Shown piece by piece: positions 1,419-32,000 of a stretch of 32,000 nucleotides of DNA. Source of the DNA: an uncultured archaeon (lineage in GTDB: Archaea; Asgardarchaeota; Thorarchaeia; Thorarchaeales; Thorarchaeaceae); the NCBI GenBank assembly GCA_964354495.1, contig CAYHAA010000003.1, positions 160,507-192,506 on the forward strand, written 5' to 3'. Under the pieces are notes generated by a model. The model worked only from the letters and a program-made list of their open reading frames with translations, was not told the origin of the DNA and did no database searches. Every line of letters starts with the position of its first letter. The stretch's first letter is position 1. Position numbers and translations under genes: made by a program.

Positions 1419-1605
1419 GCTCCTTTTTGTTTGAATAATGAAGAAACCCTGACTATGTCTGCATCAGGTGTGTTAATGACACTGGAAGAGTGATGACATT
1501 CGTAGAGAGCTGGAGCAACACTAATTAGAACAATGTCGATGGAAGACTTCAAAAGTACCGAATAACTACGGCGCGTTCAAAGACCGAGGTTGTGAGTGAG
1601 AGAGA

Positions 1606-2547
1606 ATGGGAATCGGTTCAGGCAAGGGAAAAGCAATCCTTTTTGGAGAGCATTTTGTGGTCTATGGATTCCCGGCACTCGCTGCGGGTATCTCATCAGA
1701 AACTGTGGCAAAGGTGACGAGAAAGCGTTCCAGTGGATGGGTGCTCCTAGATAATCGGCCAGCGATGCCAGGGTATAAGGAACAAAAGAGCGACGAGCAG
1801 AATGTGTCTATTGAGAACATCCTGAGATACTGTAATATCGATGCATCAAGAACGGGGTTCCAAGTCGAACTGGGAGGAAACCTGGTCTGCGCTTCGGGGA
1901 TAGGGGCCAGTGCAGCCAGCAGTGTGGCAATCGCCAGGGCTCTGAATGACGAGTACTCACTCGGCTTGAATGACAAGCGGATCAACGAGGCGGCCTATGA
2001 GGGAGAGAGAGGATACCATGGAACACCCTCAGGAATAGATAACACTGCGTCGACCTACGGAGGACTTGTATGGTTTGCCAGAGATCTCAAAGGGGGACCC
2101 CCGAAGTTTGAAGCACTCAAATTGAGAAGACCTGTGCACCTGGTCATCGCATCAACTGGTCTGACTGCGAGCACCAAGGAAGTCGTGGGAGATGTCAAAA
2201 GGAAAAAAGACGAGGACCCTGACTGGTTCGGGAAGCTATCTAGCGAGTACAATGAGTTAGTTCATGAGGGGAGAGATGCCCTCATTCAACTTGATTTGGC
2301 AAGGGTCGGTAAGCTCATGAATCGAAACCATGAGTTGTTGCAGGACATGACAGTTTCCTGCAAGGAACTTGATAGCTTGGTTGAGATAGCAAGAAAGAGT
2401 GGAGCAAGTGGAGCCAAGATGACCGGAACTGGCAGAGGAGGCAACATGATTGCTCTTGCCTCTGACGAAAAGACAATGAAGAAGATTGCAGCAGCGCTTG
2501 AAAGAGCCAAGGCTGCAGGTGTTTGGACAACAACTTTCGGACTCTGA
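1606..2547 (+). CDS. mvk: Mevalonate kinase
   Basis: GHMP signatures: GKAILFGEHFVVYG, SGIGASAA, HGTPSGID, AKMTGTGRGG. Confidence 0.92.
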   Translation: MGIGSGKGKAILFGEHFVVYGFPALAAGISSETVAKVTRKRSSGWVLLDNRPAMPGYKEQKSDEQNVSIENILRYCNIDASRTGFQVELGGNLVCASGIGASAASSVAIARALNDEYSLGLNDKRINEAAYEGERGYHGTPSGIDNTASTYGGLVWFARDLKGGPPKFEALKLRRPVHLVIASTGLTASTKEVVGDVKRKKDEDPDWFGKLSSEYNELVHEGRDALIQLDLARVGKLMNRNHELLQDMTVSCKELDSLVEIARKSGASGAKMTGTGRGGNMIALASDEKTMKKIAAALERAKAAGVWTTTFGL

Positions 2548-2557
2548 GGTGAAGTCA

Positions 2558-3865
2558 TTGATACTGGAGGACTATATCGGAAGACTGCAGGAACAAGGCA
2601 AGATTACAACAATCAGAAAGGAGATCTCGAAGAATCTCGAGATTGCGGGAGTCTTAAAGGGCCTCGAGCCAAGACCGGTCTTGTTCGAAAAAGTCAAAGA
2701 GAGCGAGTTTCGAGTGGCTGGAAACCTGTTCTGCAACAAGATGCAGATTGCAGACTATTTTGGAATTCAGACAGAACAGATGATTCCTTTCCTCACCAAG
2801 GCAATTGAGAACAGGAGCCCGCCCGAGAGCACAGACAAGGCTGCGTGTCAAGAGGTGGTTGAAAAGTCCGTCAATCTCGATAGACTTCCAATCCTGTTTC
2901 ATAACAAGGTGGATGGCGGGCCATACATCTCATCTGGTGTGGTGGTTGCTGCGGATCCCGAGTACGGGCAGAACCTCGACTTCCATAGGGCTATGCAGAT
3001 AGGAAAGAACAGAATGGTAACCAGAGTTGTCAAAGGAAGAGACTTCCACAAGTTTCTGGAGAAGAATGGAGAGGTGGATGTTGCGTTTTGTGTTGGAAAC
3101 ACCCCAGAGGTGTTGGTGGCAGCAGCAACATCTGTGGAAACCGGTTCAGACGAACTGGAGATAGCAAATGCCCTTCAGCAGATCAAGGTGGTGAAAGCCA
3201 AGACTGTTGATCTGATGATTCCTGCAGACTCCGAATTCGTACTAGAAGGCAGAGTTGTCCTTGAAGAGAAACACAATGAGGGGCCATTCATCGACCTTAC
3301 TGAAACCGTGGATGTCATCAGACAGGAACCGGCTTTCGAGGTGAGGAAGATTACTCATAGAAAGACTGCCATCTGGCAAGGCCTGCTTCCGGGGAGATCG
3401 GAACACAAGATTCTGATGGGAATGCCTAGGGAACCAACAGTATTCAAGAAGGTGAAGGATCGGGGTATAGATGTTCTGGATGTATACATCACACCAGGTG
3501 GAGCAAGTTGGTTACATGTTGCTATCAAAATAAGGAAGAAGAATGAGGATGACGGGCTGCAGGCCTTGGAGGCAGCTTTCGCGGGTCACAAGAGCGCGAA
3601 ACACATCTGGGTCTATGACGAGGACATTGACATATACTCAGACGAAGAGCGAGAATGGGCAATGGCCACCAGGTTTCAAGCAGATGTTGATCTGCTCATC
3701 AAGGACCGTGAAACAGGAAGTTCGCTGGACCCGAGCGCTGAAGTTGGTACGAATCTGACGACTAAGTGTGGGTTTGACTGTACAAAGGTGCTAGACACCA
3801 AGGGAAAGAGCTTCGACAAGGCGAAGTTTCCAGAAGTGGACCTGAAAAAGTACCTAGGTGATTGA
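2558..3865 (+). CDS. UbiD-family decarboxylase, probable trans-anhydromevalonate 5-phosphate decarboxylase (start moved to TTG 2558 after SD GAGGTGA)
   Basis: UbiD motifs (DGGPYI, EGPF, EHKILMG, SSLDPS). Lies between mvk and the aconitase X subunits. Confidence 0.82.
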   Translation: MILEDYIGRLQEQGKITTIRKEISKNLEIAGVLKGLEPRPVLFEKVKESEFRVAGNLFCNKMQIADYFGIQTEQMIPFLTKAIENRSPPESTDKAACQEVVEKSVNLDRLPILFHNKVDGGPYISSGVVVAADPEYGQNLDFHRAMQIGKNRMVTRVVKGRDFHKFLEKNGEVDVAFCVGNTPEVLVAAATSVETGSDELEIANALQQIKVVKAKTVDLMIPADSEFVLEGRVVLEEKHNEGPFIDLTETVDVIRQEPAFEVRKITHRKTAIWQGLLPGRSEHKILMGMPREPTVFKKVKDRGIDVLDVYITPGGASWLHVAIKIRKKNEDDGLQALEAAFAGHKSAKHIWVYDEDIDIYSDEEREWAMATRFQADVDLLIKDRETGSSLDPSAEVGTNLTTKCGFDCTKVLDTKGKSFDKAKFPEVDLKKYLGD

Positions 3866-5054
3866 GATGGTCTTACGATTAGTATCTGAAGAGAAGAAGA
3901 TGCTTGATGGTAAGTATGGGAAAGCAGCGCAGAAATCTATGGAGATCATCATAGCACTCGGGGAGATCTATGGTGCCAAACGTCTGATACCTGTATCAAG
4001 TGTTCAGATTGCCGGCGTATCCTATGACAATCTAGGTGAAGCAGGTCTTGGGTATCTCAGTGAGATGGCCGAGGATGGTAAGACACGTGTGCTGACCACC
4101 CTCAATCCTGCAGGCATGGACATGGTTGAATGGAAAAAGCACGGAATAAGCAAGAACTTCGCCAAAAACCAGCAGAGGGTTGTGGATGCATTCGAGAGAA
4201 TGGGAGCAGTGACAACATGTACCTGTACACCCTACCTTATTGGAAACCTGCCACACTATGGTGAGCATATTGCTTGGGCAGAGTCCTCTGCAGTGTGCTT
4301 TGCTAACTCAGTCATAGGTGCATACACCAATAGAGAAGGGGGGCCGAGCGCACTTGCTGCAGCACTCACAGGAGTGACTGCAGAATACGGTTTCCACTTT
4401 GACGAGAACCGAGTCGCACAGGTCAAGTACGAAGTCCAGGCAGAACTGAAGGGAACCGATGACTTTGGCCTCTTGGGACAGGTCATTGGAAACAGGACAG
4501 GAAAAGCAATTCCGTACATCACTGGAGTGAAGAAAGTGACCACTGAAGAGCTGAAATCTTTCAGTGCATCTGTTGCCACCTATGGTGGCATTGCTATTTT
4601 CCATATGGAGGGAATCACACCCAATAGGACCACGGTTCCAGAAAAGACCGAGGTTGTGACGACGAAGGACCTAAGGAGAGCAAGGACCGAGCTAGACGAT
4701 GAGGCGGCAGAAATCGACTTCATCAGCGTAGGTTGCCCACATGCAAGTATAAAGGAGATTGCAGAGATAGCGAGTATGCTCAAGGGAAAGACGGTCGCTG
4801 AAGGCAAAACTGTCTGGATTACTACTGCTAAGCCTACAAAGGACCTGGCTATCAAGATGGGCTATTATGATCAAATAGAGCAGGCAGGAGCATACCTTGT
4901 GGCTGATGCTTGTTGTGCAGTGGCTCCACTAAAAGGCAGATTCAAAGGACTGATGACTGATTCTGCAAAGGCCTGTTTCTATGCTCGTGGTAAGAATAAG
5001 TTCAAAACAGAAATTCGGACTGTTGAGGAATGTATTAGGGAGGCCCTGTCATAA
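3858..5054 (+). CDS. Aconitase X large subunit (DUF521), probable phosphomevalonate dehydratase large subunit
   Basis: IAGVSY, CTCTPY, WAESSA, NREGGPSALAAALTG, GCPHAS, TDSAKACFY. Confidence 0.85.
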   Translation: MIEMVLRLVSEEKKMLDGKYGKAAQKSMEIIIALGEIYGAKRLIPVSSVQIAGVSYDNLGEAGLGYLSEMAEDGKTRVLTTLNPAGMDMVEWKKHGISKNFAKNQQRVVDAFERMGAVTTCTCTPYLIGNLPHYGEHIAWAESSAVCFANSVIGAYTNREGGPSALAAALTGVTAEYGFHFDENRVAQVKYEVQAELKGTDDFGLLGQVIGNRTGKAIPYITGVKKVTTEELKSFSASVATYGGIAIFHMEGITPNRTTVPEKTEVVTTKDLRRARTELDDEAAEIDFISVGCPHASIKEIAEIASMLKGKTVAEGKTVWITTAKPTKDLAIKMGYYDQIEQAGAYLVADACCAVAPLKGRFKGLMTDSAKACFYARGKNKFKTEIRTVEECIREALS

Positions 5055-5440
5055 TGCAAGGACGAAAAATATTCAAGGGACGGGTCGTAGGGGAGGCCCT
5101 CGTCACTGGAGAGGACATTTCATTCTACGGTGGCTGCGACCCCGAAACCGGTGAGATAGTGGAAAAGGGGCACAATCTGGAGGGCAAGTCAATAGCAGGA
5201 AAAATCCTTGTCTTCCCCTCTGGAAAGGGATCTACTGTGGGCTCTTATGTCCTCTACGCCTTAAAGAAGGCCGAAAAGGCGCCCCTAGCCATAGTGAACA
5301 GGATAATGGACCCAATCGTTGCTGTGGGCTGTATCATTTCAGAGATACCTGCGGTAGACGAGATTGAGATTGAAAAGATTAAGACTGGTCAAAGAATTGA
5401 GGTGGACGCCGATAACGGCGTCGTAACTCCTGTCGAGTAA
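5054..5440 (+). CDS. Aconitase X swiveling-domain small subunit (DUF126), probable phosphomevalonate dehydratase small subunit
   Basis: GKILVFPSGKGSTVGSY motif; translationally coupled to the large subunit (TAATG). Confidence 0.87.
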   Translation: MQGRKIFKGRVVGEALVTGEDISFYGGCDPETGEIVEKGHNLEGKSIAGKILVFPSGKGSTVGSYVLYALKKAEKAPLAIVNRIMDPIVAVGCIISEIPAVDEIEIEKIKTGQRIEVDADNGVVTPVE

Positions 5441-5443
5441 GAG

Positions 5444-6079
5444 TCAGAACCGCTGAACTTGAGGCTCGAAGGCCTCTGGAGTGAAAGCCGGTTCACTCTC
5501 CTCTGGTATGTCGCCTCTCGCCTTCAGCACTTGAGTTGTCACAAGATAGTAGACCAATGCGAGTGACTTTCGACCACGATTGTTTGTAGGTATCACAAGG
5601 TCCACATTTGTGGTTGCATTGTCAGTGTCGCAGAGTGCGACTACTGGTACGCCAATCTTTGCCGCCTCGTTGAGAGCCTGCTGATCTGTGCGGGGGTCTG
5701 TGAGTATCACGACATCCGGTTCTATGTACTGTCTAGGGCCGGCAATCTTGGGATTCGTCAGTGTTCCTGGAACAAACCGCTCTGTGAAAGCATGTGCTCC
5801 AATATAATGGGCGAAGGTTTCTACAGGACGTTTACCGTATACACGACCGGATACTACGACAATCTTTGAGGGGTCGAACCGAGCAAGGAACTTGCCTACT
5901 TGTCTAATCCGCTCATCAGTCTTACGAACATCAAGAACGTATAGGCCAATTGGACGTTGCCTATAGACAAAGGGTTCCATGTCCTGTGTCTTGACCTGTG
6001 TGCCAATGTGGCATCCTGCAGCCAAGTACTTGTCCATTGGTGTTAAGAGATCTGAGTCCGGGACTTCTATATCACTCAT
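5444..6079 (-). CDS. rps2: 30S ribosomal protein uS2
   Basis: [39 protein letters not shown]. Confidence 0.97.
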
Positions 6080-6295
6080 CTATTTTACCTCCGCAGGGGT
6101 GACAGTTGAAAATGCCATGAAACTATGAATAATATCAATATGGGCAAGTAGCATTCTTCGACAACAGTATCGGTTCAGCCCGAGCTTGTCCAGAACAACT
6201 GCGGGATCCTCACCCTGCCGTACCTCTCGCCTGAACTGATCGTACTTGTCAGCGACTACTTTGCCACATGTGAAACATCGTATTGGGATTATCAT
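6080..6295 (-). CDS. rpoN: RNA polymerase subunit N (Rpo10); true start at MIIPIRC (6295), not 6409
   Basis: PIRCFTCGK and RYCCRRMLL zinc motifs. Confidence 0.96.
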
Positions 6296-6305
6296 TGAAT
6301 TCGCC

Positions 6306-6704
6306 TCACCTGTATGATTTCTGGAATCGCGAGCGAGCTGATGGACCACCGAACTTCTTTGGTTCGGTACGTCTCGGGTCTCCAACGAGCATCGTTCTGT
6401 CATGCTCAATCATCCTTGAACGGGCCTCGAAGTCTTGACTCATACGAATCAATCCGGTTGCTATCGACATTCTAACAGCGTCTGCCTGGCTCATGAATCC
6501 GCCTCCCTGAACTCTCACCTTGATGTCGTAACGCTTCCAGCCCTCACCGAAGATAATCAATGGTTCCATGATTCTCATTCGTGCCAGTTCTGGCTGATGG
6601 ATTTCCAGAGGCGTTCCATTAATCCTCACTCGGCCGGCGCCATCTCTCAACGTGGCCTTTGCAAGACTTGTCTTTCTTTTGCCTGTGCTCACAACAACCC
6701 TCAC
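6306..6704 (-). CDS. rps9: 30S ribosomal protein uS9 (probable GTG start 6704)
   Basis: [39 protein letters not shown]. Confidence 0.97.
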
Positions 6705-6705
6705 T

Positions 6706-7167
6706 TCATGCCACCTCCGGATTTCTCCAACCAAGTTCGTGGCTTAAATCACTCACTTGAATGTACTTGCTCTTCATGCTCACATAGCGCGACTTTTCAA
6801 GCACAATCCTCTCTGCATCGCGGTACTTCTCTGGGACTCCCATGTAGACCTTGACGCGTTTGAGGGCAGCCTTTGCTCTTGGGGTCGGCCATGGCAGCAT
6901 GCCCCGAATCATTCTTCGAACCATCATATCAGGTCTGCGCTCATGAAACGGGCCCAGAGTATGATTCGAGGAGGTTCGAATATCACGCTTCTCTTTGAAA
7001 GCCGCAATCAGAGACCTACGGCCGCCTGTGATAATGGCCTTCTCTGCATTGATAATGCAGACATCTTTGCCCATTAGTGCATCCTTTGCAACCCTAGTTC
7101 CAAGTCGACCGATAACCATCTTCTCAGCATCGTAGACTTTGACATTGTCTGTACTCATTGGGATCAC
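6706..7167 (-). CDS. rpl13: 50S ribosomal protein uL13
   Basis: DAEKMVIGRL, INAEKAIITG, GPFHERRPD, RGMLP. Confidence 0.96.
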   Translation of the reverse strand: MIPMSTDNVKVYDAEKMVIGRLGTRVAKDALMGKDVCIINAEKAIITGGRRSLIAAFKEKRDIRTSSNHTLGPFHERRPDMMVRRMIRGMLPWPTPRAKAALKRVKVYMGVPEKYRDAERIVLEKSRYVSMKSKYIQVSDLSHELGWRNPEVA

Positions 7168-7554
7168 CTACACAATAATCATAATGCCCGTCCCTTTCGG
7201 GGCCTGAGTAAGTAATTCGTCAATTGACATGACCGAACCACCGGCCTCAACTATCGCTGACCTCGCTGTCGAAGACGCATTCAATGCAGCAACTGTTACT
7301 TTGTGGGTAATGATGCCGGAGCCTAGAATTTTCCCGGGCACTACCACAATATCACCAGCGCTAGTATGACGCTCTATCTTGCCTATGTTCACTGCAGGAC
7401 GGTGTCTAGCAGGTTGGGCAATCATCTCAGCCACACGCTTCCAAATCCTGACATCGTGTTTCATGGATGTCTTTCTAAGCGCGTTAATCAGTGCGCGTGT
7501 ATTGGGGTCAGATGGGCCGCTTCTCACAGATCTCTCCATGTTCTCATACCTCAT
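7168..7554 (-). CDS. rpl18e: 50S ribosomal protein eL18
   Basis: IWKRVAE, VNIGKI, VVVPGKILGSG; canonical position after rpoD. Confidence 0.95.
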   Translation of the reverse strand: MRYENMERSVRSGPSDPNTRALINALRKTSMKHDVRIWKRVAEMIAQPARHRPAVNIGKIERHTSAGDIVVVPGKILGSGIITHKVTVAALNASSTARSAIVEAGGSVMSIDELLTQAPKGTGIMIIV

Positions 7555-8351
7555 AGTGAATTCGCATAATCTAGAGCTTGTCTGATTCGCTCCTTCAGAA
7601 TCTCAGCTGCCTTGTCAACAATCTGTTCAGGAGGCAATGCTCCCGTGGACTCAACCTTGAACAGATAACTATCCTTCTTTGAATCGATTGTAATTGCTCC
7701 GGGTTCGCAGACCTCGACACAGGCCTCACAGAGGCTGCAGTCGAGCGTGTTCTGTGTTGCTATTGTATCACCCTCAATGAGTAGGATGTTCTTAGGGCAT
7801 ACATCAACACAGTCCCCACATTGATTGCATTTCTCCTTGTTCACTTCAACGATTGGCACATACTTATAGGAAACAGTTGAAACGGGTTGGAACTTGGCGT
7901 TCTCAATACCCCGTCCAAGACGTGCATACGCCTCAATGATAAGATGTTGGTGAGGAGCAAGCTTCACTAGGGGAATATCACCTGATACAGGAACAATTTT
8001 CGGATCTTGTGATACAAGGTCGCGGGAATAGACGGTTTCATCTACATCGCCTGCCTGTTTCTCGAGAGTGAGGGTACATTGGCATAGACTGCAGCCTTTT
8101 CCCTCGCAGTCGCATTCCTCTGGGATATTATAGCTCTCATAGTCGGTCACTAGAGGAAGAAGCCCCATTCTGTGAGCTAACATCTCATCAAACATGACAC
8201 TGGTATTCTCTAGAATGAGCACTTCATCTATCGCCATCGCAGGCAATCTAGTAAGCATGGTTCTCCGGATTGCATTTGCAAAGGCAACATCTACTCCTTC
8301 TGCTAGGAAGTGGACAATGTTGTCTTGCTTGCGTATTATTGTGATTTCCAT
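7551..8351 (-). CDS. rpoD: RNA polymerase subunit D (Rpo3) with ferredoxin-like insert
   Basis: FANAIRRTML, DEMLAHRMGLLPL, ENAKFQPV; two CxxCxxCxxxC motifs (CNQCGDCVDVC, CSLCEACVEVC). Confidence 0.97.
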   Translation of the reverse strand: MEITIIRKQDNIVHFLAEGVDVAFANAIRRTMLTRLPAMAIDEVLILENTSVMFDEMLAHRMGLLPLVTDYESYNIPEECDCEGKGCSLCQCTLTLEKQAGDVDETVYSRDLVSQDPKIVPVSGDIPLVKLAPHQHLIIEAYARLGRGIENAKFQPVSTVSYKYVPIVEVNKEKCNQCGDCVDVCPKNILLIEGDTIATQNTLDCSLCEACVEVCEPGAITIDSKKDSYLFKVESTGALPPEQIVDKAAEILKERIRQALDYANSL

Positions 8352-8554
8352 TGACTCACCTTACTGTGGAGGTTAATCCAATACCCAAAAGACATGTTCT
8401 TCCCGGATGGACTCGCTAGTGGTGACGTTCAACCAGATAGCTCATACGCCCATGCCTTGGGCGCGTTCGTCTGCTGGCCTCGCACATAAAAGGCTTGTCC
8501 TAAGGCGATGAGATGAAGAGGCCAGTGCTCAAGTGAACACAATGTCACGGTCTA

Positions 8555-9052
8555 TCATGCAGCAACCTGGACCATATCTCTCAGTCCGTTGACAATCAGC
8601 TTGTATCCGTTTAGGCGTTCTCTTGGATCGACTGCGACCATGCCATAGGTTGGAACGCCCAGCAAATCTTGGACTGATTCAGGTCTCATAGAACCTGGAA
8701 GGTCCTGCTTGTTTGCAACTGCAATGACCTTCATTCCAGCAAGCTCGTTCTTGTATTTCTCCAAAAGCTGACGGGTCTTGAGTACAGCCTTTGGGTTACT
8801 CTCAGTGACAACTACGACCATTGTACTGCCTTTCATGAAGTCGGGCCAGAGAAACTCAAAATGCGCCTGACCACCCATCTCAACCAGAGAGACCTTTGTG
8901 GTGGCATCGATTGTGATTGTCCCGCAGTTCATACCCGGAGTTGGCTGGTAGTTGCACTGAAGCTTTGGCGCCTTGTCTGTCAGGAGCTTGATTAGAGTCG
9001 ATTTGCCTGCATAGCCTGATCCCATCAGCGCAACTTTGACATATTCGGTCAT
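8555..9052 (-). CDS. Small GTPase, Arf/Ras-like
   Basis: G1 GSGYAGKST, G2 PTPG, G3 EMGGQ followed by FLW, G4 NKQD. Confidence 0.88.
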   Translation of the reverse strand: MTEYVKVALMGSGYAGKSTLIKLLTDKAPKLQCNYQPTPGMNCGTITIDATTKVSLVEMGGQAHFEFLWPDFMKGSTMVVVVTESNPKAVLKTRQLLEKYKNELAGMKVIAVANKQDLPGSMRPESVQDLLGVPTYGMVAVDPRERLNGYKLIVNGLRDMVQVAA

Positions 9053-9237
9053 GACAGTTGAACTCCGAGATTGAAACGGTTAGACGGTGTATAGGTTGGT
9101 GTATTTCGTAGGTAACACTCATCAAGTGGCATGTCGAGCCTTCTAGGCTCTACTTAAAAATACTACAAGAATCGGTTGCTCAGAGCTATAGAAGCCCTTA
9201 ACAAGATGATACACCTCGCAAGGCCAGAGCTGATTGA

Positions 9238-12052: not shown

Positions 12053-13840
12053 GTGCTGATGGCCGAGTCTGGAAAACTACGTTCCCCAATTGTGACAGTC
12101 CTTGGTCACATCGATCACGGAAAGACCTCTCTCCTTGATAAGATGCGTGGGACTGCAGTCCAAGCTAGGGAAGTAGGAGGAATGACACAGCATATAGGTG
12201 CATCTTTCTTTCCAACCGAAACAATTCTCTCAATCTGTGGCACTCTGCTCAATGCGGTTAAGACTGAATTGACTATTGATGGTCTACTGTTCATTGACAC
12301 ACCTGGTCATGAAGCATATCTGAATCTGAGAAGACGAGGCGGAGCCATTGCAGACATCGCAATACTAGTCATTGATATCAACGAAGGTCTTCTAAGTCAG
12401 TCATATGAGTCCCTGAAGATACTCATGTCTGGCAAGACACCGTTTCTCATTGCTGCAAACAAGCTTGACAAGGTCCCAGGGTGGATAGACAGAGAGAAAT
12501 TGTCACTTTTTCAAACCATCAAAGCCCAGACCATGTCAGTACAGACCGAGGTCGATAGAAGAATATACGAGATTGTGGGCTCACTCTCTGCAAATGGTAT
12601 CCAATCAGAGCGATTCGACCGGGTGAAGGACTTCACCAAGACTGTGGCCATAGTACCGACGAGCGCCAAGACTGGAACAGGAATTCCAGAGCTTCTGATG
12701 GTCCTCTCTGGGCTGACTCAGCAGTACATGAAGGAAAGGCTCAAGATATCGAGAGGGCCCGCAAAGGGCGCAATTCTTGAAGTCAGAGAGGAAACAGGTC
12801 TGGGTGTCACACTAGACACGATCATCTATGACGGTGTTCTGAGAAAGACAGACACAGTAGTCATTGGTGGTCTCTCTGGAGTGATAGTGGCAAAAATCAG
12901 AGCTCTGTTGCTCCCCAAGCCATTAGATGAGATTCGAGATCCAAGAGAGAAGTTCACTCAGGTAGATGTGGTCTATGCGGCAGCAGGTGTCAAAATTGTA
13001 GCTCCTGATATCGAGGGAGCAGTAGCAGGGGCGCCAGTCTATGCAGTGTCCGACCCCGAGAGACTTGAAGAAATCAAGCAGAAAGTAAAGGACGAGTTGA
13101 AGTCAATTCGAATTAAGACAGACAAATCTGGTATTGTGTTGAAAGCTGATGCATTGGGGTCCCTTGAGGCGGTGACGCAGTTCCTGCAGGAGAGACAGGT
13201 CCCTGTGCGTTCAGCAGATGTGGGCCCCATTGTGAAACGAGATGTCATCGAGGGACATGCCTCGGGCGATAGCGACCCGCTCAACGCAGTGGTCTTGGGA
13301 TTCAATGTGAAGATTACGCCAGAGATAGAGGACTTGGCAGCTGAACTGGGCGTCGAGATATTCATGAATGAGGTGATCTTTCGGTTATATGATGAGTACT
13401 ACGCATGGCTCATTGTTAAGAGAGAACAGGCAAAAGCCGAGTCGCTAGGTGCAATCATCAGACCCGGCAAGATTGAACTGATGCCCGAGTATGTCTTTAG
13501 ACACAACAATCCAGCAGTTGTAGGCGTCAAGGTCCACGGTATAGTCAAACCAAAAGCGGTACTAATCAACGGGGAGGGGAAGAGGATAGGCACTATTCTT
13601 CAGATACAGGACCGTAGCGTGCCTATTGGTGAGGCCATAGAGGGGATGGAAGTCGCTGTTTCAATTCGTGGCCCCACCGTTGGAAGACAACTGAAAAGCA
13701 GTGATATCCTGTATGTCGATATACCTGACAAACAAATACTAGCTATAAGAAAGAAGTTCATCGACGAACTCTCTCCAACAGAGAAGACAGTGTTAGAAGA
13801 ACTCACCGCAATCAAGAGGTCTGTTGGGTCATTAATATGA
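12053..13840 (+). CDS. infB: Translation initiation factor aIF5B / IF-2
   Basis: LRSPIVTVLGHIDHGKTSLLD, TQHIGA, FIDTPGHE, AANKLD. Confidence 0.97.
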   Translation: MLMAESGKLRSPIVTVLGHIDHGKTSLLDKMRGTAVQAREVGGMTQHIGASFFPTETILSICGTLLNAVKTELTIDGLLFIDTPGHEAYLNLRRRGGAIADIAILVIDINEGLLSQSYESLKILMSGKTPFLIAANKLDKVPGWIDREKLSLFQTIKAQTMSVQTEVDRRIYEIVGSLSANGIQSERFDRVKDFTKTVAIVPTSAKTGTGIPELLMVLSGLTQQYMKERLKISRGPAKGAILEVREETGLGVTLDTIIYDGVLRKTDTVVIGGLSGVIVAKIRALLLPKPLDEIRDPREKFTQVDVVYAAAGVKIVAPDIEGAVAGAPVYAVSDPERLEEIKQKVKDELKSIRIKTDKSGIVLKADALGSLEAVTQFLQERQVPVRSADVGPIVKRDVIEGHASGDSDPLNAVVLGFNVKITPEIEDLAAELGVEIFMNEVIFRLYDEYYAWLIVKREQAKAESLGAIIRPGKIELMPEYVFRHNNPAVVGVKVHGIVKPKAVLINGEGKRIGTILQIQDRSVPIGEAIEGMEVAVSIRGPTVGRQLKSSDILYVDIPDKQILAIRKKFIDELSPTEKTVLEELTAIKRSVGSLI

Positions 13841-13889
13841 TTCTGTCATCATCGGCAATGTTTTTAGGCTATCGCTAGAAGGGTCATAT

Positions 13890-14089
13890 TGCGACGGGTA
13901 GGGCTGGGTCGTTTGCCGCGACCTGTCACCGGTAATGGCAATAGCTGGAGCCAGTAACCAACATCAAGGATGAACCAGAACATCGGTGGGTCCAGTCGCA
14001 GGACGTTGACGTGCGGTCTCTTGAGTCTGTCACGGACAAAGCAGCATTCGTAGGTCTGCTGTGATTGTCATAGACTTTCGAACAGGGTT
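13890..14089 (+). ncRNA. 5' half of a split SRP (7S) RNA gene: Alu domain, helix 5 5' strand, helix 6, start of helix 8
   Basis: First ~69 nt differ from the intact copy at about 5 positions. Homology continues to ...GAACAGGGTT, then stops. TATA-like TTTTTA at 13861-13866. Confidence 0.88.
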
Positions 14090-14380
14090 TGACTGTTTTG
14101 GTTCAATCCATCCAAGTGTGCTGAAAAACTCGTATGTTGAAGGGTTCAAACCATTTTGTAGAAGTGAGGTTTTGAGTAGTCTTTTGCCTGACAATCGTAG
14201 CGAACTCTTGTCCATTGATACGCCAGCTAAGGTACTCCAGTCAATTATCCTTTCACGGCGGCGCTTCTATGTGTTCTGACACCTTCATTGATAGACTATG
14301 ACAATATTCAAATTTGTAGTTAATTATCCATATGTAAACAGGATTCATATCACTTGAAGCGTGAATACATGGGGGTTATT

Positions 14381-14518
14381 ATGATGCAGTTTAATGATAC
14401 TCTTCTTGACAGGCTCTATGCACATGTGAAGGCTTGGAAACGTAGAAACTGGTTGGTACCAGTCTTAGTAATACTACTGCTAATTATGGGTTTGTTTCCC
14501 AGTGTTGTTCTCTTCTGA
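14381..14518 (+). CDS. Putative 45-aa membrane microprotein (below the ORF-track cutoff)
   Basis: MMQFNDTLLDRLYAHVKAWKRRNWLVPVLVILLLIMGLFPSVVLF: basic patch then a C-terminal hydrophobic helix; SD-like GGGGGT upstream. Confidence 0.4.
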   Translation: MMQFNDTLLDRLYAHVKAWKRRNWLVPVLVILLLIMGLFPSVVLF

Positions 14519-14536
14519 TATGAATGTAGATGAATA

Positions 14537-14851
14537 CTAGGATGGAATTATGTGAATCCTGATGCTATAATAGTCTCCACTATAATCCAAGACAGATATC
14601 TTCACATAGTACAAGCCCTCGTAGGTCGTTACATGACCAGCAATCGCATGATTGTCAATATAGTACCATGAATATTGGAGAACATGCAAAGCATAGTCTA
14701 GAATCCAGATTATAGTGATTTTGTTCAGGAAACTTTCTTCCCGTGGATACTTGGTGGGAATCCTGCGCTTATCCTTTCGAACTACTAGAAGAATGGTAAC
14801 CAGACTCCCGATATTATCAGAAGCTGTACCCAGAACACAGGGTTTCTCCAA
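14537..14851 (-). pseudogene. Possible degraded fragment of a secreted or membrane protein gene
   Basis: TTG-start ORF of 104 aa. An overlapping frame reads NWRNPVFWVQLLIISGVWLPFF* (hydrophobic), suggesting frameshifts. No recognisable motif. Confidence 0.25.
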
Positions 14852-14909
14852 TTCTAATTAACCAAGGTAGACTCATTCAGAAGCATCTTAAATTTCGTAA
14901 CAAATGAGG

Positions 14910-15225
14910 TGCGACGGCCCTTCCACTCCGATTGTCGATTGCTCTAAGGCAAACCCACTTCATTTCTCAGAGCGGCACCCTCTGAGGCTCCACACCTTGG
15001 CCTTAGGGCTGCTCCCGCCAGGGTCTGGCCCGTTTCGGTCATCTAAGCACGCTCACAACAAACCTACGAATGTTGCTGCGGCCGATACAGACTTCAGAGA
15101 CCACCCGTCACAGTCTTGCAATGGACCAAAGAGGTCCTCGGTTCAACCTCGGTGATTGTTACTGGTTCCGGCTATTGCCATTCCGGTCACAGGTCGCGGC
15201 AAACGACCCAACCCTACCCGTCGCA
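14910..15225 (-). ncRNA. ffs: Intact archaeal SRP (7S) RNA, about 316 nt
   Basis: Helix 1 TGCGACGG/CCGTCGCA; Alu-domain CCTGTGACCGG...GCAATAGCCGG; helix 8 GGGCCAGACCC-TGGC-GGGAGCAGCCC; TATA-like CTTAAT about 25 nt upstream. Confidence 0.92.
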
Positions 15226-15327
15226 TGATGAGTTCTCTATCTTGAGGAATTAAGGCTTACGGAAAGCCCAACTCCTAAACAGTCTATGCAAATGTTTATT
15301 CAAATTCAATAATGGGATTCATACGAA

Positions 15328-15897
15328 TCATCTGGAGAGGAACTGAGTACTCATTTGTCTATCGAATAATCTGTCCAAGATGCTTCCATTCTTTTTGAAT
15401 AACTGATATATGAAGATGATAGCCATCGGACTGATCAGGATGAGTCCAATATAGATGAAAGACATTCGAGGACGTGCAGACAGCCCGCCTCGGATGATGC
15501 GAGGTTGATTATAGGGATGTGAGAGAACCCCCCCATAAATCCCAGGGTGCGGGAAGTGGACAACCCCTTGATATTCAGTAATATTTTCAAGAATAAAAAT
15601 CGGTTCAATACCCTCCAAGATTCCTGTCTCGAGGATTTGGTTCAGATCCGTGGAGTTGACTATGAAGAATGAGAAAAGACTCACATTGTCACCACTTTCC
15701 AGCCAAAGGTTCATGTCATCCGTAACAAAGAAACAACTTGCCTCGTAAGTATCTGGAAGTACAAACCCTGATATTTCACCATGTGCTGGAATGAGGAATG
15801 ACATGACCAGTAAGAGAACACCAACCACAGATACGAGCCTTGCCAAGGATATGATAGATTTCATAGATTCTAGACCTCCATTCTCTTGAAGAGCCAC
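15328..15897 (-). CDS. Hypothetical membrane protein (N-terminal signal/TM and C-terminal TM)
   Basis: Hydrophobic segments at both ends; co-directional with the ABC genes; probable start MKSIISL near 15864. Confidence 0.7.
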   Translation of the reverse strand: MALQENGGLESMKSIISLARLVSVVGVLLLVMSFLIPAHGEISGFVLPDTYEASCFFVTDDMNLWLESGDNVSLFSFFIVNSTDLNQILETGILEGIEPIFILENITEYQGVVHFPHPGIYGGVLSHPYNQPRIIRGGLSARPRMSFIYIGLILISPMAIIFIYQLFKKNGSILDRLFDRQMSTQFLSR

Positions 15898-16697
15898 ACC
15901 GAGAGGGATAGAAGCAGGACAACCATAACTGAAAGAAGAGCTACAAAGCTAAGCACTATTTCGATTGTTGGTACATTACTTAGTATAATTGGAAGTAAAC
16001 CGCTGGAGCTTTCTCCATATAGATAACGGGATATGAATATCATAGGATTCCCTATCCAACGAAGGATTTCTGGAGTGGCTATTGAATAGGAAGATGACAT
16101 TAAGCTGAACCACACTACGACGCCTCCAAGTGCGGAAACAATCATTCTCTTTGTGATTATCGCAAGGAAGACTGTTGATGTGATAATCATCAGAAGCGCT
16201 AGCCAAAAAACACCGAATAGTAAAATGCACGCTCCGAGGTTCCATGGTGCAGGAACCATAAGAAGCACAGCAAGAAGGACAGAGAATGTTACACAGGTTC
16301 CTATGATGACCGTTGGTACAACAGTTCTCATAATCAGCAGTTGCCAACGTTTTACTGGATATGATAGAATGGTCCGAAATGAATTATCCTCGAAAGATTT
16401 TGCTGTTGTGAAAGCCACTAGGAGTGGTACGATGAAAATGAGCATCGCCCAGAGTTGCTCCAGAGCTTGCGCCACTTCAAAGGTGGTGAAGATGTTGACA
16501 TAAGACAAGAAAATCTCTGTCGATTCAATTCCGGCTCCAACTGTGAAAGACAAGGTCCAACCCATCCAGTTGGAAACAGCATTAAATGAGAAATAAAGGA
16601 ACACCACAATAAGAATCTCTACTAAAGGCGACCGATAGGTATGACGAAAGTCCAGTCGTGTCACATCTAACCATTCTCTTCTCTTGACTTTACTCAT
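15870..16697 (-). CDS. ABC-2 type transporter permease
   Basis: About 6 TM segments; SFEDNSFRTILSYPVKRWQLL matches the ABC-2 E..G..R.LL..P..R pattern. Confidence 0.85.
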   Translation of the reverse strand: MSKVKRREWLDVTRLDFRHTYRSPLVEILIVVFLYFSFNAVSNWMGWTLSFTVGAGIESTEIFLSYVNIFTTFEVAQALEQLWAMLIFIVPLLVAFTTAKSFEDNSFRTILSYPVKRWQLLIMRTVVPTVIIGTCVTFSVLLAVLLMVPAPWNLGACILLFGVFWLALLMIITSTVFLAIITKRMIVSALGGVVVWFSLMSSSYSIATPEILRWIGNPMIFISRYLYGESSSGLLPIILSNVPTIEIVLSFVALLSVMVVLLLSLSVWLFKRMEV

Positions 16698-17622
16698 TCT
16701 TCACAACCTCCCTGTATACCTCTTCAAGTGTTGAGGCTTTTTCAATTGCATAGACGGTTATACCTAGAGTTTCAGCAAGGACATCCAGTTCATGCTTCAC
16801 TAAGTCGATATCTCCCGTACCAAGCGTTATGGTGAGGGTGTTGGCACCGCTTACAGTGCTTGATGTGATTTCCTCCGAGTGAATGGACTCCCGTAGTCGT
16901 TTGGGTTCAGTGCAAACCACTCTGAATGTTCTTTGTGTCCATTGCTGAATGATATTTCTCACACTTCCACTCTCGATTATCTTGCCATCTTTGATGAAGG
17001 CAACATTGTGGCAAGCCTTTTCCAGCTCTGAGAGGATGTGGGAGGAAATGAAGAAGGAGATCCCCATATCGGTGTTGAGATCGACAATAAGTCGGATGAT
17101 ATCATCGCGCCCTGTGACATCGAGGTTGGATGTTGGTTCATCAAGAAATACCAGTTCAGGATTCCCTATCAGTGCCTGCGCGATTCCTAAGCGCTGGTTC
17201 ATTCCTGCCGACAACTCGCCAATCTCTCTATCATGCGCTTCATCAAGACCTACTAGGGCGAGTAAATCTTTTGCATCGCGTTCACTTCGATAGATTCGTT
17301 TGACTCCCTGTAGATATTCGATAGTGGTGGCTGCTGGCAGAAATGATGGTCTTTCGTGAAGTACACCTATGCGGCGTCTGATCTCAAGGCTCTGTGTTTG
17401 CACATCCAGACCTAGAACCCTTGCTTCTCCGCTATCAAGGTGAGCAAGCCCAAGCAGTATACGCAGAAGTGTGGTCTTTCCAGCGCCATTAGGGCCAATC
17501 AACCCGAAAATGCATGGTTCAACTGATAGGTCTACACCATCAAGTGCTTGGACTCTCCGAAAGCTCTTCTTCAGTCCTGATACTTCAATTATAGAAGAAT
17601 TAGCAGACATCGTTACTGCCAC
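16690..17622 (-). CDS. ABC transporter ATP-binding protein
   Basis: Walker A GPNGAGKTT, signature LSAGM, Walker B VFLDEPT, SSH switch. Confidence 0.95.
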   Translation of the reverse strand: MAVTMSANSSIIEVSGLKKSFRRVQALDGVDLSVEPCIFGLIGPNGAGKTTLLRILLGLAHLDSGEARVLGLDVQTQSLEIRRRIGVLHERPSFLPAATTIEYLQGVKRIYRSERDAKDLLALVGLDEAHDREIGELSAGMNQRLGIAQALIGNPELVFLDEPTSNLDVTGRDDIIRLIVDLNTDMGISFFISSHILSELEKACHNVAFIKDGKIIESGSVRNIIQQWTQRTFRVVCTEPKRLRESIHSEEITSSTVSGANTLTITLGTGDIDLVKHELDVLAETLGITVYAIEKASTLEEVYREVVKNE

Positions 17623-17700
17623 TCCAAACCATACGACTGTTTCTACAAATGTTAGTATGATACTTATCTCTTTCGAAAAGAATCCTTATTCGATTCCCAA

Positions 17701-17816
17701 AGGCCCTGGCGGGAACAGCCCTAAGGAAGAGCGATGGAGCCCAAGAGAGAGCCGCATTGAGAAATGCACTGATTTGCCTTCGGACTACCGACATTCGAAA
17801 TCGAGGGGCCGTCGCA
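17701..17816 (+). ncRNA. 3' half of the split SRP RNA gene: rest of helix 8, helix 5 3' strand, helix 1 3' strand
   Basis: AGGCCC-TGGC-GGGAACAGCCCTAAGG...GGGCCGTCGCACCTC is colinear with the 3' part of the intact copy and pairs with 13890-14089. Confidence 0.88.
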
Positions 17817-17837
17817 CCTCTTCTTGGCCATGATACG

Positions 17838-18383
17838 CTACTTGAGTGCCTGTTCGACCTGCGATACAATGTCCTTGTAGACTGCATGAATGAATTGTTG
17901 ATCGAAGGCGTATTCCTCCTTCAGCATTTCCTCTCTCTCTGCTTCACTGAAGTATTTCATAGCTGGTTTGAAGAAGACCTTGTCTTCCTTCTCAATGTGC
18001 TTTGGATAGAAATTCACTAATCGAAGCATCGTGTCTAGTATCGTCTTCAGAGCTGCAGAGTCCCCAGCGACGTATTTGTTCTTGGCACGGACCAGTTTGC
18101 CTGTCAGATTTCTTCCCTGCACATGCTCTTCTATCAGCTCATCCATGACTTGTTTGTTGTCAGGACTGAGCTCCTTTTTCTGCAGATCACGGAATAAAAT
18201 CTTCTCTTCTTTCCCATGGTGACACAGGTCTGCATAGACGCGTATGAAATCGACTGCTCTATCGATGAATTCTGGATCCACAGCCTGCTTTTTCGTGATA
18301 CGGTCTATCTCTCTCGCCATTACTGCTATCATTCGTTCAATAAGCCTATGTTCAATCATTAATGGGCCGATTGGAAGTACCAT
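17838..18383 (-). CDS. Hemerythrin HHE cation-binding domain protein (start MVLPIG at 18383)
   Basis: EHRLI, HHGKEEKILF, EEH, HIEKEDKVFF. Confidence 0.88.
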   Translation of the reverse strand: MVLPIGPLMIEHRLIERMIAVMAREIDRITKKQAVDPEFIDRAVDFIRVYADLCHHGKEEKILFRDLQKKELSPDNKQVMDELIEEHVQGRNLTGKLVRAKNKYVAGDSAALKTILDTMLRLVNFYPKHIEKEDKVFFKPAMKYFSEAEREEMLKEEYAFDQQFIHAVYKDIVSQVEQALK

Positions 18384-18582
18384 TTTCAAACCTCCTGTTT
18401 CCTGAGATGTATCAGGCCATATGCCATTCACTATAGTTACAAACCATAATAAGATAATCAGTTACCGAAAAGTTACCATCTGACTCCAAGATAACGTCTA
18501 GGAGATGAACAGAGGCAGCGGAGGTCAGGCGGAGGTGTCGGATATTTCCTCTCCGGAATAATCTAATCAGTCTGTATCAGAA

Positions 18583-20140: not shown

Positions 20141-20285
20141 TGGCGCTGAGGACGAGACTTGAACTCGTGAGTCTTTCGACAATGGATGTTTGCGTACTTG
20201 CTAAATAGCAACTAATAGCAATCCATCTCCTTACTTCTCAATGCCCGTTTTAAAAACGGGCATTTCCAAGCTAGGAAACCTCAGC
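20141..20285 (-). tRNA. tRNA-Ser(GCT) with two introns (D-loop about 19/20 at 20234-20265; 37/38 at 20188-20215), CCA encoded
   Basis: Acceptor GCTGAGG/CCTCAGC-G-CCA; long variable arm TGTC-GAAA-GACT; anticodon stem ATGGA/TCCAT; BHB central helix TTGC/GCAA. Spliced form reads CCTAGCTTGGTAAGGAGATGGATTGCTAATCCAT. Confidence 0.92.
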
Positions 20286-27602: not shown

Positions 27603-31657
<4,055 letters not shown>

Positions 31658-31784
31658 TTAAGCCATCTCCTATTGAACTACCTCTTTGTATTTATCATGA
31701 TACAGCATATTATCTAAAGTGAAGAAGTGTCAATGAACAATTCAAATTTCGAGAGAGAATGATTATAACAGTTATGGTATGTCT

Positions 31785-31914
31785 GGCTCTGTGTGAAAAG
31801 TCAATGATAGCGTAATGATCAGAACAATTCGCGTCATATCATGTACGGATCCTACACTCATTATTCCTTTTCTGACCGTACCATTTCATAGTTGGTGACT
31901 TTTCACACAAAGCC
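31785..31914. mobile_element. 130-bp MITE, IS5 family (IS903-like ends)
   Basis: 19-bp terminal inverted repeats GGCTCTGTGTGAAAAGTCA / TGACTTTTCACACAAAGCC (1 mismatch), flanked by the 9-bp direct repeat GGTATGTCT at 31776-31784 and 31915-31923; no transposase. Confidence 0.85.
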
Positions 31915-32000
31915 GGTATGTCTTGGATGGTAACATAGAACGATGCATTTTCTATTCAAATTCGAGCTAATCGGATTCTAATTCTGAAGCAAAATCAAGG

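Follow-up and report, generated by a model that had tools for sequence, protein, structure and literature searches.

The window analysed here, a stretch of 32,000 nucleotides from the metagenome-assembled genome (MAG) of a Thorarchaeota (Asgard) archaeon (G000; 51 contigs, 97.7% complete, 3.8% estimated contamination), contains an SRP RNA gene in two halves, with a second, intact SRP RNA gene between them in the opposite orientation. This arrangement raises the question of which gene serves the cell, and of how an essential RNA gene came to be broken in helix 8. The reading favoured here, with a probability of about three in four, is that a precise insertion inactivated the resident gene (type A), that a xenologous gene (type B) replaces it, that the two halves are dead, and that the process is a recurrent one in Thorarchaeia. 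Disruption of the resident gene by an insert that brings a full replacement was one of three options listed in the first-pass annotation, and it is the one best supported by the anatomy of the locus, the empty sites in relatives and the phylogeny.

The interrupted gene

The resident gene and its neighbours are arranged as follows.

12053..13840 (+): infB (aIF5B), left neighbour of the SRP RNA gene (Pfam GTP_EFTU, IF-2 and GTP_EFTU_D4)
13850..13872 (+): type A promoter, CAATGTTTTTAGG, with a TATA-like TTTTTA at 13861-13866, about -28
13892..14088 (+): 5' half of the resident type A SRP RNA gene (BLASTN; nhmmer, family HMM 2-191, 173.8 bits)
17701..17814 (+): 3' half of the same gene (BLASTN; nhmmer, family HMM 193-306, 85.5 bits)
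17838..18431 (-): hemerythrin-domain gene (Pfam Hemerythrin and synteny)

The 5' half comprises the Alu domain, the 5' strand of helix 5, helix 6 and the start of helix 8, and ends in the letters ...CAGGGT. It is 95.4% identical to the gene of G006, and its Alu domain gives a partial match to Rfam Archaea_SRP at 13892-13998 (+, 35.7 bits). The 3' half, which is 93% identical to the gene of G017, opens with AGGCCCTGGCGGGAACAGCCC (the helix 8 symmetric loop, tetraloop and 3' strand) and continues with the 3' strand of helix 5 and the 3' end. The gene is broken after the T of ...GGGT and before the AGG of AGGCCC. This point, about 7 nt 5' of the tetraloop, is at the 5' edge of the symmetric loop of helix 8, which is the SRP54-binding site. 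When the joined halves are aligned with the family HMM (2-191 plus 193-306), a single position, a C, is missing; the loss at the break, earlier put at nothing, is near zero but includes this one nucleotide.

Downstream of infB in close relatives, the exact uninterrupted site is seen. In G006, G017, G002 and others, the sequences corresponding to window positions 12397-14088 and 17701-18396 are contiguous except for a single intervening base, and in G006, G017 and G002 the hemerythrin-domain gene is the conserved right neighbour of the uninterrupted gene. The distance between infB and the SRP RNA gene is at most about 2.3 kb in all the surveyed family loci that included infB. In the alignment, the type A promoter block is unchanged across G006, G017, G055 and the split copies of G000 and G059, and the TATA box claimed at about -25 upstream of the 5' half is found within this invariant block at about -28. 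The first-pass annotation, with coordinates (13890-14089, 17701-17816 and 14910-15225) accurate to within 2 nt, had described an SRP RNA gene split by an insert with a second intact copy, and this description is borne out by the Rfam, BLASTN and nhmmer searches together with the empty sites of the relatives.

The intact gene and the origin of the two copies

The intact gene and its promoter lie within the insert.

14912..15223 (-): intact B-type SRP RNA gene (Rfam RF01857, 91.6 bits, model 1-317, E = 2e-20; nhmmer 257.7 bits)
15247..15267 (-): B-type promoter, gene-strand letters CTTTCCGTAAGCCTTAATTCC, with a TATA-like element about -28 from the 5' end at 15223

The Rfam match is derived from an Rfam 15 search by E-value, and a default scan at the gathering threshold gives no match in the window. 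The score of 91.6 bits, just under the RF01857 gathering score of 96.5, is typical for the genus, because SRP RNAs of the same genus reach about 80-112 bits. The B-type gene is the sole full-length SRP RNA gene of G000 (97.7% complete). Among the seven genes of the B clade, 20 of the 95 consensus pairs display double compensatory changes, and the gene is evolving under structural constraint. Its promoter, which is unlike the type A promoter, is kept in all seven. Metatranscriptome contigs 98-99% identical to the B-type gene are present in two studies; such contigs may contain DNA and are not tied to this organism. The B-type gene presumably now supplies the SRP RNA of the cell.

The two copies have distinct positions in the SRP RNA tree. 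The joined halves group with their orthologs in G006 and G017, the nearest species (support 100/97), and the intact copy falls in a B clade (100/100) together with genes of G007, G009 and G024, from the same genus, and of G054, G057 and G059, from genus g22. In the same tree, the G059 halves join a type A gene of g22, that of G055 (100/100). On the infB host trees, B-type genes are patchily distributed among the hosts. The intact copy is a xenolog, because it belongs to a separate, strongly supported clade that spans two genera and has its own promoter.

The halves had been noted to differ from the intact copy by compensatory changes in helix 5 (TCTCTTG/CAAGAGA versus TCTCTGA/TCAGAGG), helix 6 (CAGCA/TGCTG versus CAACA/TGTTG) and the Alu region (GGCT/AGCC versus GGTT/AACC), and all three were verified on the sequence. 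They show a separate functional ancestry of the two copies, but they are no proof that the split copy still works.

State of the two halves

The two halves have most likely lost their function and would now be in an early phase of decay. The split copy has 14 unique changes, versus 7 and 5 in its orthologs. Among the paired-site changes since separation of the split lineage, four of six break pairs in the split copy, versus 0/3 and 0/3 in the orthologs; these counts are small, and were scored on an ortholog-derived structure, which favours the orthologs. The joined halves keep 93 of 97 consensus pairs, and all four non-standard pairs are due to G000-specific changes. The branch length of the split copy is only about as expected from the long infB branch of G000, and the case for decay therefore rests on the small pair-breaking count. 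The 5' half may still be transcribed, since the type A promoter is intact.

It is conceivable that the halves are transcribed apart and then either spliced at a bulge-helix-bulge (BHB) motif by the tRNA-splicing endonuclease and a ligase or assembled in trans, in which case the split gene would be functional. Parallels for such a gene are known from split tRNAs and from the permuted SRP RNA of Thermoproteus. Such a scheme would agree with the almost complete lack of loss at the break, the helix 5 pairing that is still possible between the halves, and the intact promoter. However, neither G000 nor G059 has a strict BHB motif within 4 nt of its junctions, and relaxed matches turn up in 91% of shuffled controls. 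The search for a complementary leader and trailer gave none, the locus contains a second gene that is intact, and there are relatives that lack one or both halves or hold a decayed relic. Joined type A RNA contigs do occur in two metatranscriptome libraries, but they contain the extra C and 12 mismatches to G000 (3/187 in the 5' half and 9/102 in the 3' half). Because they carry a C that is absent from G000, these contigs probably derive from relatives with an uninterrupted gene. A functional split gene is thus extremely unlikely.

It is also improbable, if not quite to that degree, that the 5' half still functions by itself as an Alu-domain RNA, independent of the S domain and with a role in, for example, elongation arrest. 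The intact promoter, the lower number of differences in the 5' half than in the 3' half relative to the RNA contig of the uninterrupted relative, and a T4 tract 7-11 nt past the break that may act as a terminator are in favour of such a role. Against it, the 5' half is missing from G009, G024, G007, G054 and G057 despite the same replacement, and two G000-specific changes break pairs in Alu-proximal helices. Trans assembly and an Alu-only RNA had been the other two options of the first-pass annotation, and neither found support, given the lack of a strict BHB motif and the loss or decay of the halves in relatives.

Recurrence at one position of helix 8

B-type genes are present in antisense orientation at the same helix-8 position in G059, which belongs to another genus and has both halves, and in G009. 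The G059 locus consists of a 5' half (HMM 2-195), a 4.2-kb spacer, the antisense intact gene, a 133-nt spacer and a 3' half (HMM 197-310). G009 has the same right junction, which is also seen in two contiguous metagenome contigs (L132 and L133) from two samples. In G024, the 3' relic is decayed and lies 90 nt away from the B promoter. The insertions of G000, G059 and G009 share one inter-nucleotide position, and the relics in each are of the host type. The identity of the relics to the host-type gene is 95%/93% in G000 (G006/G017), 95% in G059 (G055), 94% in G009 (G023) and only 74% in G024. Of the B-bearing relatives, G009 and G024 lack the 5' half, and G007, G054 and G057 lack both halves.

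At least three insertions, in two genera, look independent, because the relics resemble each host's own SRP type. The recurrence of B-type insertion at one position across species and in a second genus is new here, and literature searches found no description of such an SRP RNA gene replacement.

Composition of the insert

The insert (14089-17700) is 3612 bp long and, besides the B-type gene, consists of the following parts.

14089..14906 (no strand): left arm (X), AT-rich, 37% GC at 14300-14699
15410..17629 (-): three-gene ABC-2 cassette (Pfam ABC_tran and a weak ABC2_membrane_2 match)
16690-17622 (-): ABC-2 ATPase, cassette gene
15870-16697 (-): ABC-2 permease, cassette gene
15328-15897 (-): cassette membrane protein, 170-190 aa, C-terminal end unlike its homologues
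17630..17700 (no strand): right end, ending in ...GATTCCCAA and adjoining the 3' half

The left arm is single-copy in the genome, has only short ORFs without family matches, and holds an inverted partial copy (14281-14305) of the final 25 nt of the 5' half. The ABC-2 cassette is 92% identical in DNA to those of metagenome contigs L121 and L122, 80% to those of L123 and L124, and 73% to that of L125; these five contigs contain neither SRP RNA gene nor infB, and the flanks of L121 are only 70-79% identical to contig C23 of G000. A paralogous three-gene ABC-2 cassette is present in the island region at rpoA1 on the same contig of G000, as checked by gene content. The insert is a mosaic, and its ABC-2 cassette, with 92%-identical counterparts in unrelated contexts elsewhere, is separately acquired secondary cargo. 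The earlier view of the insert as one island is accordingly not upheld.

A Logan contig of 11.4 kb from another study, 93% identical, covers 14907-17819, from the intact copy through the ABC cassette and across the right junction to the 3' half, with the left junction outside the matched span. The infB-to-B stretch of this 93%-identical relative is different, with 716 other letters versus 1037. These data bear on the possibility that the locus is an assembly chimera of two strains or species within the metagenome bin. The MAG is composed of 51 contigs with 3.8% estimated contamination, and independent contig support reaches the right junction but not the left, as a chimera would allow. The same architecture or right junction, however, appears in independent assemblies (the Logan contig, G009 with L132/L133, G059 and G024), and a mis-join at common sequence would yield a chimeric whole gene rather than clean halves flanking an antisense copy. 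A chimera is hardly credible.

Mode of insertion

Searches against Pfam, NCBIfam and PHROGs detected no recombinase or transposase in the insert of G000 or in those of G009, G059 and G054. No direct repeat or att core brackets 14089-17700, no terminal inverted repeats or target duplication were found at the G000 insert, and the G059 junctions have at most a 6-nt repeat, GGTCCT. The domain and repeat searches thus agree with the first observation of an insert devoid of integrase, terminal repeats and target duplication. Over their terminal 120 nt, the inserts have no stable hairpin in common. Domain searches found no endonuclease domain (LAGLIDADG, HNH, GIY-YIG and similar), degenerate or novel nucleases being outside their reach. 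There is no ORF common to the inserts, and the insert-side junction sequences differ in all four genomes.

In the favoured reading, a precise insertion at helix 8 would have inactivated the resident type A gene, and a complete xenologous B-type gene, arriving antisense with its own promoter, would have taken over the supply of SRP RNA. The mobile ABC-2 cassette would have entered separately, between the B promoter and the 3' half. In two genera, B-type genes would have entered host type A genes on three or more occasions, each time antisense and at one and the same nucleotide position; the relics would afterwards have decayed or been deleted, to leave infB followed by an inverted SRP RNA gene. 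The conserved helix-8 sequence may have been cleaved, or may have served as a site of recombination, by an agent whose gene is missing from the present inserts. A site-specific step in the placement of the B cassette is marginally favoured.

The main alternative to a site-specific step is the spread of one old junction by recombination. A single ancient accidental insertion would have produced a composite allele (5' half, X, antisense B, Y and 3' half), which then moved between species solely through homologous recombination in the adjoining SRP halves and infB, without a site-specific enzyme, and the halves would have been overwritten with host-type sequence. The junction is indeed inside the most conserved stretch of the gene, and a 15-nt run immediately to its right, CCTGGCGGGAACAGC, is identical between divergent type A genes. 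Moreover, uninterrupted type A and B-type RNAs, both very close to those of G000, occur in the same two RNA libraries, which fits within-population polymorphism, and the SRP gene trees are widely incongruent with the infB trees, so that allele exchange is common at the SRP locus. However, G006-like and G055-like sequences share runs of no more than 3-4 nt left of the junction, yet the left junction falls at the same nucleotide in G000 and G059. In addition, the G009 relic is host-like from its first base, and the nearest B-bearing lineage, G024, has a 74%-identical relic that is too decayed for recombination homology. Considering these points, descent from one old junction is rather unlikely.

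A stronger form of the site-specific reading, that B provides the rescue in a natural cleave-and-rescue or homing-like system in which resident type A genes are cut in their helix-8 DNA by a B-linked agent at a single phosphodiester bond, is speculative and has the lower probability of the two. The agent may have been lost from the present inserts or be encoded on an unsampled plasmid or virus, and survival would be limited to cells that acquire the B cassette at the break. If this were true, an essential non-coding RNA gene would be spreading horizontally across Thorarchaeia genera and replacing the resident allele.

Comparison with known systems

In Thermoproteus tenax and T. uzoniensis, the SRP RNA is permuted and circularised (Plagens et al. 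2015, eLife, PMC4731332). There, a single SRP RNA gene gives a permuted transcript, which is cleaved at a BHB motif and then closed by ligation to a functional circle (PMC4731332). The G000 locus is similar in that an archaeal SRP RNA gene is broken in helix 8 by genome rearrangement, but it differs in having no strict BHB motif, in the 3.6-kb distance between the pieces, and in the second intact gene that replaces the broken one.

Synthetic cleave-and-rescue (ClvR) gene-drive designs destroy an essential gene at a defined site and provide a linked, divergent rescue copy. As a conceptual analogue only, the present case resembles them in the destruction of an essential gene at a defined site and in the linked divergent copy that keeps carriers alive. 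In contrast to ClvR, no nuclease was found with the B inserts, and a selfish spread of B is only conjectural.

Homing introns and inteins, such as the archaeal rRNA introns with LAGLIDADG endonucleases, sit at highly conserved sites of essential genes. Like them, B is found again and again at a single exact position where an essential gene is most conserved, is patchy among hosts and horizontally transferred, and passes through a cycle of invasion, decay and loss. Unlike them, the B inserts have no endonuclease ORF or splicing that could be found, and viability is maintained by the replacement gene they carry rather than by excision of the insert from the RNA.

Where integrative elements and islets occupy the 3' part of a tRNA, tmRNA or SRP RNA gene, they restore the target by partial duplication (attL/attR). 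This classic form is found within the same family, in G046, which has an intact SRP RNA gene and, 2.3 kb downstream, a 95-nt perfect direct repeat of its 3' end. G000 shares with such elements the presence of foreign DNA in a stable-RNA gene whose function is saved by insert-borne sequence. In G000, however, the break is in the middle of the gene, with neither direct repeat nor att core nor integrase, and the rescue is provided not by a duplicated 3' segment but by a complete, separately promoted, antisense xenolog.

SRP RNA genes in the window

No match was found when the window was compared with Rfam at the curated gathering thresholds, and an E-value search over positions 13500-18200 was used instead. 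This search returned a full-length Archaea_SRP match on the minus strand at 14912-15223 (model positions 1-317, 91.6 bits, E = 2e-20), in agreement with the intact gene described in the first-pass annotation, and a partial match to the Alu domain at 13892-13998 (+). The score of the intact copy lies slightly below the gathering score of 96.5, and SRP RNAs of the same genus all score about 80-112 bits. For annotation, this is a caution that a genuine SRP RNA gene may score slightly below the Rfam threshold with fragments close by. The features concerned are as follows.

13892-14088 (+): 5' half of the type A SRP RNA gene (nhmmer family profile positions 2-191; BLASTN against the intact copy)
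17701-17814 (+): 3' half of the same gene (nhmmer family profile positions 193-306; BLASTN against the intact copy)
15410-17629 (-): ABC-2 cassette of three genes (ATPase, permease, third membrane protein), 92% identical to JGI metagenome contigs

By BLASTN and nhmmer, the sole profile position absent between the halves is 192, a C. The split and intact copies are about 80% identical, and the helix differences quoted for them in the first-pass annotation are all present in the sequence, as is a TATA-like element of the 5' half, at about -28. An nhmmer scan of the whole genome (G000, 97.7% complete) recovered these three SRP pieces only, and the minus-strand copy is therefore the genome's single intact SRP RNA gene. 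Further SRP fragments, of the kind that nested older events would leave, were found neither in the insert nor genome-wide.

In other genomes of the genus, among them G006, G017 and G002, window positions 12397-14088 and 17701-18396 align to adjoining DNA, so that an empty site exists in relatives and the insert is delimited to 14089-17700. The junction in the uninterrupted genomes reads ...ATGGGT C AGGCCCTGGCGGGAACAGCCC, and the insertion point borders the symmetric loop of helix 8 on the loop's 5' side. An assembly chimera is very unlikely, because 14907-17819 (intact copy, ABC cassette, right junction and 3' half) is spanned unbroken by an 11.4-kb contig that is 93% identical and comes from another study; of the two junctions, the independent support is for the right one. 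A partial Rfam match in G001 and a contig start in G005, considered as further split genes, are normal genes truncated at contig ends.

Origin of the two copies

In a tree of 79 Thorarchaeaceae SRP RNAs, the joined halves cluster with those of G006 and G017 (support 100/97), and the intact copy falls in a separate B-type clade (100/100) with G007, G009 and G024 of the same genus and G054, G057 and G059 of a second genus, g22. The phylogeny called for in the first-pass annotation thus assigns the two copies to different origins. The compensatory differences between them, taken there as a sign that the split copy diverged as a functional whole gene, reflect this separate ancestry and not continued function of the split copy. 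B-type genes have in common the promoter TTCCGyAAnCCTTAATTCC, at about -28 to -45; the type A promoter, CAATGTTTTTAGG, is invariant and unlike it. Of the 95 pairs in the B clade, 20 have changed in a compensatory way, which indicates that B-type RNAs are functional and under structural selection. Two RNA libraries from different studies (X17 and X18) each hold a B-type RNA that is 98-99% identical to the intact copy (14915-15213). It is also seen that each library contains uninterrupted type A together with B-type RNA, that is, both alleles or two close species in the same samples.

Recurrence at one position in relatives

All 86 species representatives of Thorarchaeaceae were surveyed at the SRP locus with nhmmer and tblastn. 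Wherever a locus included infB, the distance between this gene and the SRP RNA gene was no more than about 2.3 kb. The architecture of G000 is found again in G059: infB and a 5' half come first, then, after 4.2 kb, an intact B gene in antisense orientation and, 133 nt further on, a 3' half. The G059 halves correspond to positions 2-195 and 197-310 of the profile of genus g1, on which the G000 halves occupy 1-196 and 197-311. The G059 break also falls between ...GAGT and (C)AGGTCC, and both halves match the type A gene of G055, another g22 genome, at 95% identity. In G009, the order is B, 733 nt and a 3' half beginning at the same AGG; this right junction is confirmed by two metagenome contigs, each contiguous and each from a different sample, and the relic is 94% identical to G023. 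What is left in G024 is a 3' relic in decay (74%), 90 nt away from the B promoter; in G007, G054 and G057, an inverted B gene comes immediately after infB, and no relic is present. A scan of metagenomes for the B-promoter pattern found only two contigs, both of the G009 type.

B-bearing and type A genomes are interleaved on infB trees. The relics resemble their own host's SRP type, and divergence among the B genes is 0.1-0.25 substitutions per site. This combination speaks for three or more separate events of insertion, all fairly recent (G000, G009 and G059); each is antisense, and each falls between the same two nucleotide positions of a 310-nt gene.

Inverted SRP genes beside infB also occur outside the B clade, in L081 (G050), L082 (G051) and three loci of genus g15 (L074, L077 and L078). 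A simple local inversion is suggested for G050 by the type A-like promoter that its gene retains; in G051 the promoter is B-like and a 3' relic is present in eroded form; and in the g15 genomes 1.8 kb separates infB from the inverted gene. Across the family loci (L066-L120), the SRP RNA tree divides genera g1, g22 and g25 over two deep clades, and the two SRP types of g25 are interleaved on the infB tree. It is therefore suggested that allele replacement at the infB-SRP locus is frequent, even where no relic survives. By BLAST, window positions 20141-20285 are conserved beside the SRP loci of several relatives.

Contents of the insert

Searches of Pfam, NCBIfam and PHROGs revealed no integrase, transposase or nuclease domain in the insert, which also lacks terminal inverted repeats, a target duplication and terminal hairpins; the earlier reading is borne out as to integrase, terminal repeats and target duplication. 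Searches of the same databases likewise gave no mobility genes in the inserts of G009, G059 and G054, and tblastx found no protein common to the inserts of G000, G009, G059, G054, G057 and G007. Only the B gene and its promoter are common to the inserts of different genomes; no other ORF or DNA is.

The ABC-2 cassette occurs on the JGI contigs in other contexts, without an SRP gene or infB. The cassette is 92% identical, whereas the flanks of these contigs match G000 at only 70-79%; it is found in at least three different contexts (for example, beside an rpS19-like gene or a hemerythrin gene; L121-L125), and its left breakpoint in G000 falls within the 3' end of the third gene. From these identities, the cassette is recently transferred secondary cargo and behaves as a mobile unit. 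A search for a donor locus with B beside the cassette, by way of homologues of its 189-aa protein, found the cassette only without an SRP gene.

A paralogous three-gene ABC-2 cassette (permease 27% and third gene 25% identical) is present on the same contig, in accessory DNA adjoining rpoB and rpoA1 (L201, G000:C3:191000-202500, positions 1485-9147; window 31538-32000 and beyond). The same cassette type is thus seen in DNA interrupting two essential genes of one contig. The rpoA1 island also holds a 1228-aa ORF without family matches; the 1128-aa ORF of the G059 insert was considered as its relative, and the two are not homologous.

In the left arm of the insert (X), the last 25 nt of the 5' half recur in part and in inverted orientation, at 14281-14305 and 14189-14201. 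The match is 19/25 with a 10-nt exact run, and about 2% of shuffles match as well; the G059 insert has no such copy. The inverted copy could be due to chance or could be a template-switch scar, and as a signature of template switching it was set aside as marginal and not repeated in G059.

State of the split copy

When the split copy is compared with its orthologs in G006 and G017, 14 changes are found in it alone, whereas the orthologs have 7 and 5 of their own. Of the changes at paired sites, 4 of 6 in the split copy disrupt a pair, and none of the 3 in either ortholog does; these counts are small, and the structure used for scoring came from the orthologs. The longer branch of the split copy parallels the long infB branch of G000. 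There is thus modest indication that the split copy is decaying, in agreement with the decay series in relatives.

Assembly of the halves in trans, or removal of the insert as a bulge-helix-bulge (BHB) intron, was not borne out. By manual check and scripted scan, a strict BHB motif is absent at the G000 and G059 junctions; relaxed matches occur in 91% of shuffles, which is chance level; and no complementary leader and trailer were found for the halves. Contigs joining 14088 to 17701 do exist in two RNA libraries (13902-14088 plus 17701-17802). These, however, hold the C missing from G000 along with 3 and 9 mismatches (98% identical to the 5' half and 91% to the 3' half), and therefore stem from relatives with an uninterrupted gene.

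Probable gene replacement and repeated use of the site

Gene replacement is well supported, with the B gene as the source of SRP RNA and the type A halves as relics. A foreign SRP RNA gene with its own promoter lies within the interrupted resident gene, and all the later stages are seen in the relatives, from fresh halves through one decayed relic to a clean inverted gene.

A targeted process is suggested by the fact that the insertions, in two genera and in host-specific gene variants, fell at a single nucleotide position within the SRP54-binding helix. One old junction might have been spread by homologous recombination alone, and the 15 identical nucleotides to the right of the junction across host types would permit this. 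To the left, however, identical runs between the two host types are no longer than 3-4 nt, and in G024, the nearest B-bearing lineage to G009, the relic is too decayed to serve as homology. Spread by recombination alone is therefore considered rather unlikely, and a site-specific cleavage or recombination step, by which some agent places the B cassette, is favoured with a probability of roughly 0.5-0.55. A nuclease or recombinase recognising helix-8 DNA would be a testable hypothesis.

Comparison with known systems

SRP RNA is universal, essential and single-copy, and is usually treated as vertically inherited. The present genomes show its replacement in progress, which may explain why SRP RNA trees disagree with host trees in Thorarchaeaceae and why the SRP RNA gene beside infB is inverted in some Thorarchaeota. 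Literature searches found no paper joining Thorarchaeota with SRP RNA, and no description of a complete, antisense, separately promoted xenolog placed mid-gene at a recurrent position. A more familiar arrangement is seen in G046 (L079, G046:C47:6900-13300; 650-746 and 3033-3340), in which an intact SRP RNA is accompanied, 2.3 kb downstream, by a perfect 95-nt direct repeat of its 3' end (212-306), with no integrase found in the 2.3 kb between them. Such duplication of the 3' end is the classic att-type signature of an element integrated at an SRP RNA gene.
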